64,000 bases of DNA. It comes from Gammaproteobacteria bacterium (lineage in GTDB: Bacteria > Pseudomonadota > Gammaproteobacteria > SZUA-140). Where the stretch lies: the NCBI GenBank assembly GCA_026981935.1, contig JALSIC010000010.1, positions 13,131-77,130 on the forward strand. The letters are read 5' to 3'. This document shows positions 42,182-45,291 of this stretch, piece by piece (position 1 is the first letter of the stretch; every line of letters starts with the position of its first letter). Both the position numbers and the translations under genes were made by a program. The notes beneath the pieces were generated by a model. It was not told where the DNA came from, ran no database searches, and worked only from the letters and a program-made list of their open reading frames with translations.

Positions 42182-42628
42182 TCACCCCCCACCAGCCAGG
42201 ATCTCTTCGACCACTGCCACGGGAATGCGCGCACCTGTGCCTATGCCCTCGCAGCGGCGCGCCTCCATGCGCCAGCCCTTTTCCGTCGTCACCACCTCTG
42301 GCCAGAAGGGATAGCTCCTGCACTGCAACGGCCGCTTTGGATAAATCCGGCAGCGGGCATCCTCAAGAAACACACAGGCATCACCCTCCATCCGCAGTAC
42401 CAGGCCCCCGTCGGGGTGTCTTGCCAGATAACGATGCCGGAACCACTGCCAGCTCAACCCCAGATAAGAACAGATATCCTCCGCCTCATGCCGGCTGAGA
42501 AAGACATAATGACCATCTCCGCCTCTGCAGCAGGCGCCACAGCCTGTACAGTGAAAGCGCAATGTCCGGCGCCGGTAAAAAGGCTGCTTCCGCGCGGCAT
42601 CATCTTTACTCATGACGCAGCCCTGCAC
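42182..42628 (-). CDS. YkgJ-family cysteine-cluster protein (UPF0153, putative Fe-S/Zn)
   Basis: CTGCGACCRG and a later ...DARCRIYPKRPLQCRSYPFWP motif. Confidence 0.7.
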   Translation of the reverse strand: MQGCVMSKDDAARKQPFYRRRTLRFHCTGCGACCRGGDGHYVFLSRHEAEDICSYLGLSWQWFRHRYLARHPDGGLVLRMEGDACVFLEDARCRIYPKRPLQCRSYPFWPEVVTTEKGWRMEARRCEGIGTGARIPVAVVEEILAGGG

Positions 42629-42784
42629 CCTATAAACAAAGGCATTTTCTCAGCATGTTTCATACCAGAAAAGATACAACAAATTGTTTGCGCTTTACGA
42701 ATGACATTGATATCCTGCGAAAACCGTCGGATCAAGCTCCATAACGGCTTTTTCATCCAACCAAGACAAAGCGAGGAGAAACGT

Positions 42785-43231
42785 ATGGCTGTTAAAAAGA
42801 AAGCTGCCGCAAAGAAGAAAACCGTCAAGAAGACCGCAAAGAAAAGGGTCGCCGCCAAGAAAACCAGCACCAGAAGAACCACAAAAAAAGCAGCTGCCAA
42901 ACCCGCCACCAAACGCATCCGGGCCATCAAGGAACCCATGACCCGCGCCGCCCTCCTCAACCATCTCGCCGAGAGTACCGGCCTGACGAAGAAACAGGTC
43001 ACTTCTGTTTTCGACGAGCTGAAAAACGTCATCGAAGGCCACCTCAAGACAGGCGGGGCGCGCGTCTTCAACCTGCACGGCCTGCTCAAGATCAAGGTGC
43101 ATCGCAAGCCCGCCACCCGGGCCCGCAAGGGCATCAATCCCTTTACCGGCGAGGAAATGGTCTTCAAGGCCAAGCCTGCGCGCAACGTGGTCAAGATCCA
43201 GGCCCTCAAAGGCCTGAAAGACATGGTCTGA
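42785..43231 (+). CDS. HU/IHF-family DNA-binding protein with an N-terminal Lys/Ala-rich histone-H1-like tail
   Basis: Residues 1-50 are AKKK/TKK repeats. Residues ~52-148 (MTRAALLNHLAESTGLTKKQVTSVFDELKNVIEGHL...ARKGINPFTGEEMVFKAKPARNVVKIQALKGLKD) carry the HU-fold arm motif (R-x-G-x-NP-x-TG). RBS GAGGAG. Confidence 0.8.
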   Translation: MAVKKKAAAKKKTVKKTAKKRVAAKKTSTRRTTKKAAAKPATKRIRAIKEPMTRAALLNHLAESTGLTKKQVTSVFDELKNVIEGHLKTGGARVFNLHGLLKIKVHRKPATRARKGINPFTGEEMVFKAKPARNVVKIQALKGLKDMV

Positions 43232-43244
43232 CCTTTCCCCCACC

Positions 43245-43275
43245 GGTGACGGCGTGCGGGATGTGCGCCGTCACC
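43245..43275 (+). terminator. Candidate intrinsic terminator hairpin after the HU-like gene (10-bp stem GGTGACGGCG/CGCCGTCACC; weak U-tract)
   Basis: Perfect inverted repeat 14 nt after the stop codon. Confidence 0.35.
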
Positions 43276-43332
43276 GTTCAAAGCCGGAGCGGCAGCGTCC
43301 GATAGCAAGGACAGGAGGCTTCATTCTCGGAC

Positions 43333-45291
43333 ATGGCGCGGCTTTTCCTCATCCTGATCCTGGCACTCTGGGGTTCCGCCCCTGCGGCGGACAACGACCC
43401 TGACGCCCCGCTGTCGAAACAAAGAAAAGCCTTTCTCGCCGCGGAAAAGGCCCTGCGCGAAGGGGATACGCCGCGTTTCCGCCGCCTTCTCCGGCAACTG
43501 CAAGACTACCCCCTGCTGCCCTACCTGGAATACCAGCAACTGCGCCGGCGCCTGGGACGTGCGCCCGTGAAGGCGGTCCAGGACTTCCTGCGGCGCCACA
43601 GCGCCTCACCCCTGGCCGACCGGCTGCAACAGGCCTGGCTCAGGAGCCTGGCACGCCACGGCCGCTGGGACGATCTCATCGCCGCCTACCGCCCTTCCCG
43701 GAATGTGGCCCTGCAGTGCCTGTACCGCCGGGCGCTGTACAAGACCGGGGCACGCGAGGCCGCGCTGGAAGACCTGGAACGGCTCTGGCTGGTGGGCCAT
43801 TCACAACCGCGCGCCTGCGATCCCCTGTTCGCCGCCTGGCACGACCGCGGCGCCATCACCCCAGAACTGGCCTGGCGGCGATTTGCCCTGGCCATGGGCA
43901 ACAACGAGCTGCGCCTCGCCCGCTATCTGCGACGCTTCCTCCCCGATGCAGACCGGCGCTGGGCCGACCTGTGGATCAAAATCCACCGCCGGCCCGGTCT
44001 CATCGCCACTGCCGCACGCCTGGCACGTCCGCACCCCATGCGCCACGCGATTCTGCTCCACGGGGTGAAGCGCCTGGCCCGCAAGGATCCGCAAGGTGCC
44101 GTGCGCATCTGGGAAGAAAAACTGAAACCCGCCTACGACTTCAGCGCCGGCGAGATCGCCGCCACGGAGCGTCACCTGGCCATCGCGCTGGCTGTGCGGG
44201 GCGACCCCGAGGCGCTTGCCCGGCTGGCGGCAGCCGATGAGCTGGGCAGCCGCGACAATACCCTGCAGGAATGGCGTGTCCGCGCGGCCCTGTACCAACG
44301 CAACTGGCATGCCGTCCTGGCGTGGATCTACCAGCTGGACGAGGCGGCACAACAGGAAGAACACTGGCTGTACTGGCAGGCCCGCGCGCTGGATGCCCTG
44401 CAACAGAAACGTCGGGCCGAGTCACTTTATCTGGCACTGGCGGCCCGGCGCAGTTACTACGGTTTCCTCGCGGCAGACCGCCTGGCCCTGCCGTACCGCG
44501 TGACCAGCCGCCCCACAAGCCGGGAATCTCAAGACATAACGATCCTGGAACACCATCCCGGCATCCTGCGCGCCCGGGAGCTGTTTGCCCTGGGACGCAT
44601 CGTCGATGCCCGCCGCGAATGGTACTACGCCACGCGGGACATGGCGGAATGGCAATTGCGCAGCGCAGCACACCTTGCCCATGCCTGGGGCTGGCACGAC
44701 CGGGCCATCGTCACCATGGCACGCACCCGGCACCGCGACGACCTGGCGCTGCGTTTTCCCCTGGTCCACCGGGAACGGATCCTCGCCCTCGCCTCGGCCA
44801 ACGACATCGAACCCGCCTACGCCTTTGCCATCATCCGCCAGGAAAGCGCCTTCACCCCTGATGCCCGCTCTCCCGCCGGCGCCCTGGGATTGATGCAGCT
44901 GCTGCCCCGGACTGCCCGCCAGGTCGCCGCATCGCTCGGCATGCCATTCTCCCACCGCCTGCAGCTGCTGGATGTGGATACCAATCTCAGGCTGGGCATG
45001 GCTCACCTCGGCCGGATGCTCCGCCGTTACGATCATCATCCCGTCCTGGCGGCAGCCGCCTACAATGCCGGCGCCTACCGCGTCAACAAGTGGATTCGCC
45101 ACGATCACGTCACACCTGCAGATATCTGGCTGGAAACCCTGCCCATTGCCGAGACACGCGGCTACGTGCGCAACGTACTGCTTTTCACCGCCATCTATCA
45201 GCACCGCCTGGGACAACAGCCCCGCCCCCTGTTACAGAGCATGCGCCCCATTGCGCCACCTGGCATGATGCTGGCAAAAACAGAACCCTGA
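43333..45291 (+). CDS. slt: Soluble lytic murein transglycosylase (Slt70 family)
   Basis: Signal peptide, superhelical repeat region, and a C-terminal SLT catalytic motif (IIRQESAFTPDARSPAGALGLMQLLPRTA ... AYNAGAYRV). Confidence 0.88.
   Translation: MARLFLILILALWGSAPAADNDPDAPLSKQRKAFLAAEKALREGDTPRFRRLLRQLQDYPLLPYLEYQQLRRRLGRAPVKAVQDFLRRHSASPLADRLQQAWLRSLARHGRWDDLIAAYRPSRNVALQCLYRRALYKTGAREAALEDLERLWLVGHSQPRACDPLFAAWHDRGAITPELAWRRFALAMGNNELRLARYLRRFLPDADRRWADLWIKIHRRPGLIATAARLARPHPMRHAILLHGVKRLARKDPQGAVRIWEEKLKPAYDFSAGEIAATERHLAIALAVRGDPEALARLAAADELGSRDNTLQEWRVRAALYQRNWHAVLAWIYQLDEAAQQEEHWLYWQARALDALQQKRRAESLYLALAARRSYYGFLAADRLALPYRVTSRPTSRESQDITILEHHPGILRARELFALGRIVDARREWYYATRDMAEWQLRSAAHLAHAWGWHDRAIVTMARTRHRDDLALRFPLVHRERILALASANDIEPAYAFAIIRQESAFTPDARSPAGALGLMQLLPRTARQVAASLGMPFSHRLQLLDVDTNLRLGMAHLGRMLRRYDHHPVLAAAAYNAGAYRVNKWIRHDHVTPADIWLETLPIAETRGYVRNVLLFTAIYQHRLGQQPRPLLQSMRPIAPPGMMLAKTEP

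Follow-up and report, generated by a model that had tools for sequence, protein, structure and literature searches.

What does a gene make when it opens with a stretch rich in lysine, alanine and threonine and then continues as an HU-like protein, and is that opening stretch made at all? The question is raised by an open reading frame (ORF) on the plus strand of a 64,000-nucleotide stretch of contig JALSIC010000010.1 (assembly GCA_026981935.1, Gammaproteobacteria bacterium; the whole stretch analysed is referred to below as the window). Our answer is that this ORF probably encodes an HU/IHF (DNABII) nucleoid protein of a widespread subfamily, whose DNA-binding arm is about three residues longer per strand and whose N-terminus carries a disordered, basic tail. 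An earlier interpretation made from the letters alone (the sequence-only reading) had delimited the gene at 42785-43231, and these limits are exact, with 148 codons running from the ATG to the TGA. It had also proposed that the gene is a monocistronic chimera of HU and an H1-like tail, dedicated to nucleoid compaction; some of this holds, whereas other parts have to be given up or reworded, as discussed at the corresponding points.

The predicted product has 148 amino acids (16.3 kDa, isoelectric point 11.5) and is clearly bipartite in charge and composition. Residues 1-51 consist of Lys (33%), Ala (24%), Thr (14%) and Arg (10%) to a large extent and carry a net charge of +21, and the 97 residues from position 52 to 148 carry +12. 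The lysine-rich tail is no chance feature, because it is the only place in all six frames of the whole 64-kb window with at least 12 Lys per 51 residues. It had been described as a series of AKKK, TKK and AAK repeats; the Lys/Ala-rich composition stands, but the word “repeats” overstates its regularity, since a weak 12-nt period with 2.6 copies is all that Tandem Repeats Finder gives for it. The tail is thus of low complexity without being truly repetitive.

The evidence that the tail belongs to the protein is comparative. When the DNA of the window is aligned with that of four relatives (protein identity about 85-90%), the block GCGAGGAGAAAC, which includes the Shine-Dalgarno sequence, is invariant in all five species, while its flanking bases vary. 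Along the first 31 codons of the tail, the variable columns are distributed as 8, 9 and 23 over the first, second and third codon positions, as compared with 9, 12 and 13 in 95 upstream columns, and all internal gaps in the tail alignment are multiples of three. At the protein level (118 aligned relatives), positions 1-6 are near-invariant and the linker that closes the tail is conserved up to its final K-E-P (K-x-I-K-E-P), and position 52, a Met in the window protein, is occupied by Tyr in 78 relatives, Phe in nine, Leu in one and Met in the remaining 30. An in-frame start of the form M-A-[V/A/T]-K-K-K is found in most of 82 genomic loci, which come from different species and distant taxa, and it recurs, followed by a K/A/T-rich stretch, in the members inspected among the best 120 of thousands of database relatives, nearly all of which measure 122-160 amino acids; taken together, the relatives that keep this start represent hundreds of species. 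The length of the tail is less constant, ranging from 10 to 67 residues in the 82 loci and being longer in some database representatives. Given that Met52 is mostly replaced, that both the M-A-x-K-K-K start and the Shine-Dalgarno sequence are conserved, that changes concentrate on third codon positions and that gaps respect the frame, the Lys/Ala-rich N-terminal tail is translated, and it is conserved as a feature rather than as a sequence.

The sequence-only reading had itself raised the objection that translation might begin at the internal methionine, so that the tail would not be made, the product would be an ordinary HU of 97 amino acids and the Lys-rich stretch would be a 5' untranslated region (UTR). 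There are points in its favour: an AAGGA motif lies 4 nt 5' of the Met52 ATG, some database entries of close relatives begin at the internal Met (P0018 and P0019, 97 amino acids), and the codon usage of the tail is atypical. The last of these weighs against the translated tail that we propose. The ratio of AAA to AAG codons is 9:8 in the tail, as opposed to 6:80 in rpoC (a gene assigned solely by the position and size of its 1401-aa ORF) and 5:79 in rpoB, the GC content at third codon positions (GC3) is 0.59 in the tail and 0.82 in the core, and the arginine codons AGA and AGG are used. Taken alone, such codons could hint at non-coding sequence, but they are overridden by the comparative evidence. 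A start at Met52 is contradicted by the 88 of 118 relatives with Tyr, Phe or Leu at that position, by the in-frame start shared across distant taxa, by the invariant Shine-Dalgarno sequence before the first ATG, by the codon-position bias and the gaps in threes, and by the conservation of the linker as protein, and we therefore reject the objection and consider such a start extremely unlikely. The tail GC3 is below that of the core in 40 of 52 relatives as well, and we read the odd codons as a trait of a start-proximal, slippage-prone coding sequence of low complexity, not as a sign that the tail is left untranslated. Possible causes of the bias are a less structured mRNA around the start codon and slippage during replication.

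The remainder of the protein can be assigned both by profile and by fold. Residues 52-148 match Pfam PF00216 (Bac_DNA_binding) almost from end to end (profile positions 1-89 of 90), with 64.1 bits as compared with a cut-off of 22.4. In an AlphaFold model, computed for the monomer from the 118-sequence alignment, the predicted local distance difference test (pLDDT) score is below 50 for residues 1-41, and block means of 83-91 are obtained over residues 51-140. The modelled core comprises helices at 54-65 and 69-87, strands within 94-140, including a protruding two-stranded arm, and a final helix at 142-147. When this model was compared with the Protein Data Bank (PDB) using Foldseek, all 32 matches at E <=1e-3 (5e-8 to 1e-3) were HU, IHF, Hbb or pA104R, the first being pA104R of African swine fever virus (ASFV; 6LMH, with a target-normalised TM-score of 0.74 and E 5e-8); HU and IHF structures came next. 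A PDB search by sequence likewise gave pA104R first (E 8e-9) and then Bacillus HU (2e-6). The arm-tip motif R-x-G-x-N-P-x-T-G (R114, G116, N118, P119, T121, G122) is invariant in comparison with HU, IHF and pA104R, and at these positions conservation among 118 family members is either complete or at least 90%; the proline of this arm has a DNA-intercalating role in HU (PMC1173104). The complete HU/IHF fold with a DNA-inserting arm that had been proposed is thereby borne out.

The arm also sets the protein apart. Two insertions of three residues, one in each arm strand, are present in the window protein, in a Ralstonia homologue and in pA104R, and they are absent from all five canonical HU/IHF sequences in this alignment. 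A profile of the family core gives 103-105 bits to betaproteobacterial homologues, 57.6 to pA104R, 22-38 to canonical HU and 8-15 to IHF, and the NCBIfam equivalog cut-offs are all missed by the window protein (IHF-alpha, 31.7 bits vs 111; HU-alpha, 21.1 vs 162; IHF-beta, 19.4 vs 115; HU-beta, 17.2 vs 157). Because of the insertions, the profile scores and the failure to reach any equivalog, the gene product is assigned to what is, judging by sequence, a distinct long-arm subfamily of DNABII.

How far, then, does the likeness to histone H1 go? The best that can be obtained from models of H1-like proteins is 17.8 bits for Pfam HC2 (threshold 40), with a match confined to the low-complexity tail, and 18.8 bits for the NCBIfam Burkholderiales H1-like model hist_H1_lk_Burk (threshold 80), also in the tail only. 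The globular domain of linker histones gave no Linker_histone match at E <=1 in the window protein. The resemblance to H1, AlgP and Hc1 that had been pointed out therefore holds for the Lys/Ala composition but not for membership in those families, whose thresholds are missed, and the likeness is compositional only. Nor is “chimera” a fitting term: there is no sign of a fusion of two genes, the tail being a family-wide low-complexity extension of variable length.

The family so defined is large. At least 547 relatives were confirmed in a scan of one genome per species (at least 600 stretches), and the best 80 of them come mostly from uncultured Gammaproteobacteria (Chromatiales, Ectothiorhodospiraceae, Thiohalophilus, Thioalkalispiraceae, Thiotrichaceae and Lysobacteraceae), with Desulfobacterales and Phycisphaerae/Planctomycetota also among them. 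A profile search of 1.84 billion cluster representatives (clusters at 50% identity) returned 4807 clusters at E <=1e-3, of which 1850 passed E <=1e-10 and 124 passed E <=1e-30. At least 15 residues precede the core in 119 of the 136 top representatives in which a core could be located (median about 45), and most of these extensions are rich in K, A, T and P, although some are over-extended start calls and a minority of proteins are almost tail-less. The taxonomic spread of the tailed architecture, which the sequence-only reading had proposed to look at, thus covers at least 547 species-level genomes, Ralstonia and Alicycliphilus included. The window itself comes from a contig of a metagenome-assembled genome, and annotated examples from cultured bacteria exist, with tailed relatives among the Betaproteobacteria. 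A Ralstonia solanacearum megaplasmid encodes a 137-aa “HU family DNA-binding protein” that starts with MATKAKTATKKAASAKKPASSKKAAAATPAVKPLKD, and homologues of 123 and 111 amino acids are carried by the Alicycliphilus plasmid pALIDE01 (NC_014908.1) and by a Spartinivicinus plasmid (NZ_CP048879.1), the latter being nearly tail-less.

Two further observations concern these family members. The long-arm family occurs on plasmids, some of them conjugative, including NZ_CP013758.1 of Piscirickettsia salmonis and related ones, with tails that are short or intermediate, which suggests that some members act as plasmid-borne nucleoid proteins. In the databases, product names vary between HU, IHF and “DNA-binding protein”, and start calls are inconsistent, with some entries beginning at the internal Met (P0018, P0019) and others carrying long spurious N-termini (P0127, P0130 and P0142 are among the deviating entries).

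The coordinates of the gene, its parts and its surroundings are collected in the following table.

Features of the HU-family locus and its neighbourhood (positions refer to the window).
Feature	Position	Strand	Remarks
HU-family ORF	42785-43231	+	148 codons, ATG at 42785, TGA at 43229-43231; sequence read directly
Shine-Dalgarno GAGGAGA	42773-42779	+	5 nt 5' of the ATG; sequence read directly
Tail, codons 1-51	42785-42937	+	Lys/Ala/Thr-rich, predicted disordered; ends in conserved linker K-R-I-R-A-I-K-E-P
HU/IHF (DNABII) fold, codons 52-148	42938-43228	+	Arm extended; Pfam PF00216, AlphaFold, Foldseek
Beta arm, residues 101-142	43085-43210	+	
Arm tip RKGINPFTGE, residues 114-123	43124-43153	+	Pro119 at the position of the DNA-intercalating proline
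Stop codon TGA	43229-43231	+	
GC-rich stem of 14 bp with 5-nt loop	43244-43276	+	12 nt 3' of the stop codon
Divergent intergenic region	42629-42784	+	156 nt; presumed promoter and 5' UTR
CxxCxxCC/YkgJ-like gene	42182-42628	-	
DUF2835 gene	41909-42145	-	Stop overlaps the MazG start by 4 nt
MazG gene	41073-41912	-	
Soluble lytic transglycosylase (Slt) gene	43333-45291	+	Downstream of the HU gene
Translation cluster (tRNA-Tyr/Gly/Thr, tuf, tRNA-Trp, nusG, rplK, rplA, rplJ, rplL, rpoB, rpoC)	40748 down to 26653	-	

As had been claimed, the gene is monocistronic in the sense that its upstream neighbour is divergent and that it stands alone, and this is so in every context examined. In the nearest clade, the order MazG-DUF2835-CxxCxxCC / HU / Slt is kept at about 61-92% protein identity, and in an Ectothiorhodospiraceae clade the context is different yet stable, with a divergent Rieske gene upstream and YfaZ downstream. 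Throughout the nearest clade, the HU gene is preceded by the MazG-DUF2835-CxxCxxCC/YkgJ-like block (41073-42628, minus strand), a conserved unit in divergent orientation. The intergenic region between them has 40% GC, in a window of 63%, and several blocks within it are conserved in five related species; a promoter scan of 42100-43700 found no sigma-70 consensus site.

At the other end, the gene had been called terminator-bounded, a statement that can be kept in part. A hairpin does follow the stop codon, where RNAfold gives -33.3 kcal/mol over a 72-nt stretch (z = -2.2), and each of the 14 relatives examined (L003-L013, L018, L022, L028) has a comparable hairpin of unrelated sequence at the same place, some 10-25 nt beyond the stop. 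However, what directly follows the hairpin in the window is GTTCAAAG rather than a run of T, for which reason it was not called by the terminator scan, and the hairpins of the relatives usually have no clear T-run either. It is likely a real 3'-end element, be it a non-canonical terminator or a 3' stabiliser.

The nearby translation cluster had been given a meaning that it does not bear out. It lies on the opposite strand, 2 kb away from the HU gene and with three unrelated genes in between, and one relative with the same synteny lacks the adjacency, its MazG gene having miaB, phoH and ybeY as neighbours instead. Since the arrangement is absent from that relative, the vicinity to tuf-rpoBC is incidental and carries no information. 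A few other elements of the region complete the picture. A plus-strand ORF of 359 amino acids (40340-41419) has no Pfam match, overlaps tRNA genes and is probably spurious. A 353-aa ORF starting with TTG at 42170 and sharing the end of the HU gene (42170-43231, a stop-to-stop frame that begins 600 nt 5' of the true start) was discarded as a high-GC artefact, as were the ORFs that overlie the HU gene on the minus strand; the actual neighbour upstream, CxxCxxCC, is encoded on the strand opposite to that of the HU gene. Rfam gave no credible match in or around the HU gene.

Regarding the mode of action, family knowledge leads to expect that the core would dimerise through its two helices and that the two arms would embrace the DNA along its minor groove, with Pro119 introducing a kink. 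Both tails, with a charge of about +21 each, may contact neighbouring DNA electrostatically and without sequence specificity, by analogy with the Deinococcus radiodurans HU (DrHU), the tails of actinobacterial HU proteins and H1. Their effect could be a higher affinity, a larger binding site, the neutralisation of charge, and the bridging or condensation of DNA, which are the same roles proposed for the DrHU extension and for the H1 C-terminal domain. The gene would be expressed by itself, with a divergent AT-rich region as promoter and a strong ribosome-binding site, and the conserved hairpin is the probable end of its transcript.

Which place would such a protein take in the cell? On balance, we favour that it works beside canonical HU and IHF, as an additional chromatin protein conserved in its clade. 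This preference is drawn from the analogy with Bordetella, the host of the tailed HU-like protein BpH2, and with Ralstonia, both of which also possess canonical HU and IHF. The following considerations weigh against it and against the general assignment. That the protein binds DNA, that it dimerises and what its tail does are our inference, the protein is tied to BpH2 by a single peptide of 21 residues and a published description, and no other HU/IHF gene was found within the 64-kb window when E. coli HupA and HupB were compared by phmmer with all its ORFs, a search that also missed the target gene (from which it follows that the protein is far from enterobacterial HU). The absence of another homologue from the window is also an argument for a different idea, namely that this is the sole housekeeping HU of the lineage and has replaced HupA/HupB, as a tailed HU has in D. 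radiodurans. The stable core-chromosome context across the nearest clade, the strong and invariant Shine-Dalgarno sequence, and the tailed, essential HU of D. radiodurans (PMC11194088) point in the same direction. On the other hand, 64 kb is a small sample of a genome, plasmid-borne family members are more in keeping with an accessory role, and the retention of canonical HU and IHF in Bordetella and Ralstonia speaks against a replacement, and the housekeeping role is the less likely one.

Could the protein act mainly on particular genes, as an architectural regulator resembling IHF or BpH2, rather than as a bulk compactor? An influence of BpH2 on virulence gene expression has been reported (PMC1173104), one dinoflagellate histone-like protein (HLP) reportedly bound one DNA sequence weakly (PMC6723414), and the best NCBIfam match of the window protein is to IHF-alpha, although far below its cut-off (31.7 vs 111 bits). 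Against this, a disordered tail with a charge of +21 suggests that the protein binds DNA strongly and without specificity, its scores stay under the IHF equivalog cut-offs, and no partner or target gene is conserved next to the gene, which sits in two different syntenic contexts; a mainly gene-specific function is accordingly quite improbable. Even less can be said for an accessory protein of mobile or xenogeneic origin that sits in the chromosome by chance. It is true that homologues reside on plasmids of Piscirickettsia, Alicycliphilus, Simplicispira and Spartinivicinus, and that the phage HU family phrog_379 is matched with 68.7 bits. Nevertheless, the synteny with MazG-DUF2835-CxxCxxCC and Slt is kept at the identities given above, among the genes called in relatives over about 8 kb, none was noted as an integrase or other mobile-element gene, PADLOC gave no defence-system match, and among phages and viral contigs even distant relatives amount to one phage record and four viral contigs. 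A phage origin in particular was rejected on the latter count, and a mobile origin in general is very unlikely. The preferred reading remains that of a clade-conserved protein acting next to canonical HU and IHF.

What is gained from this gene? Its architecture is not new: BpH2 (1996) and Deinococcus HU are earlier examples of HU-like proteins whose N-terminal tails resemble H1, and the gene is an ordinary member of a known but little-studied group. Its modest value lies in the family around it, a very large one that counts 1850 clusters at 50% identity, extends over at least 547 species-level genomes and is almost wholly uncharacterised and inconsistently annotated. The arm extension that it has in common with ASFV pA104R is diagnostic, and pA104R is a drug target. 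Moreover, tails from about 10 to 100 residues on one conserved core would form a convenient natural series for testing how disordered basic tails tune DNA compaction. Two bolder readings are conceivable, although we deem them unlikely: that the tailed long-arm protein is the principal chromatin protein of uncultured sulfur-cycle Gammaproteobacteria, a bender and H1-like condenser in one that replaces canonical HU, and that the long-arm tailed family is the bacterial stock of both pA104R and the dinoflagellate HLPs. The window contains no second HU, the nearest relative with a solved structure is pA104R, which has the arm insertions as well, and in the literature the proteobacterial HLPs are placed as sister to those of dinoflagellates.

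Canonical HU and IHF have their Pfam family, their fold and the arm-tip motif R-x-G-x-N-P-x-T-G in common with the window protein, but the latter differs in its identity of 25-38%, its longer arms and its 51-aa tail. The neighbourhoods differ too: hupB is flanked by lon and ppiD, unlike the genes of the window family, which adjoin MazG/DUF2835/CxxCxxCC and Slt, or Rieske and YfaZ. Other proteins have Lys/Ala-rich low-complexity segments proposed to condense DNA, and resemble the window protein in that respect. In actinobacterial HupB/Hlp/MDP1 and HupS, the HU core is followed by a C-terminal Lys/Ala-rich tail, and Hc1/Hc2, AlgP and BpH1 are not known to contain an HU core. The arm of DrHU is presumably canonical in length, in which case its tail and that of the long-arm family would have arisen independently. 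The likeness to DrHU, considered here by its architecture as described in PMC11194088, is that of an HU with a Lys-rich N-terminal tail: its extension of about 30 amino acids has been likened to the H1 C-terminal domain and given a role in compaction, and the protein is essential for nucleoid organisation and the principal nucleoid protein of its host. As for Streptomyces HupS, this HU homologue is implicated in spore nucleoid compaction (PMC11229371).

Among the closest described architectures are the “bacterial HLPs”, which include BpH2 from Bordetella pertussis and bear an Ala/Lys/Pro-rich N-terminal extension, similar to the H1 C-terminus, on an HU-like core; these HLPs, in which the intercalating proline is retained, have been described as the sister group of the dinoflagellate HLPs (PMC1173104, Hackett et al. 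2005). BpH2 and the window protein share an N-terminal Ala/Lys-rich extension, an HU-like core with the intercalating proline and a mass of about 16 kDa. The BpH2 peptide EALNKSQLIAYLVENTGVEAK (UniProt Q7VWY4) aligns by hand with helix 1 of the core, with 7 of its 21 residues matching the window protein; a query built on this peptide is 69% identical to the Alicycliphilus homologue over 29 residues, and this homologue is 49.5% identical to the window core. The two differ in that the BpH2-type tail is rich in K, A and P and that of the window in K, A and T, and in that the window protein falls in a gammaproteobacterial clade (Chromatiales or Ectothiorhodospiraceae-like) whose core is about 48% identical to betaproteobacterial proteins. 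It is likely, from what can be aligned, that both belong to the same broad family.

Outside bacteria, dinoflagellate HLP/HCc proteins also combine a basic N-terminal extension with an HU-like core, but they are eukaryotic nuclear proteins without the conserved intercalating proline, as described in PMC1173104, and dinoflagellate HLPs were acquired from bacteria (PMC6723414). The closest solved structure, both by sequence and by fold, is that of ASFV pA104R (PDB 6LMH, 6LMJ, 9JS5), with which the two three-residue arm insertions are shared. It is, in contrast, a protein of a eukaryotic virus, about 35% identical to the window protein, without a Lys-rich tail and without the additional two-residue insertion that the window family has after helix 2. 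The extra arm residues of pA104R have been described, along with best BLAST matches to proteobacterial HU-family proteins (PMC7712801), and the pA104R gene may stem from the bacterial long-arm family.

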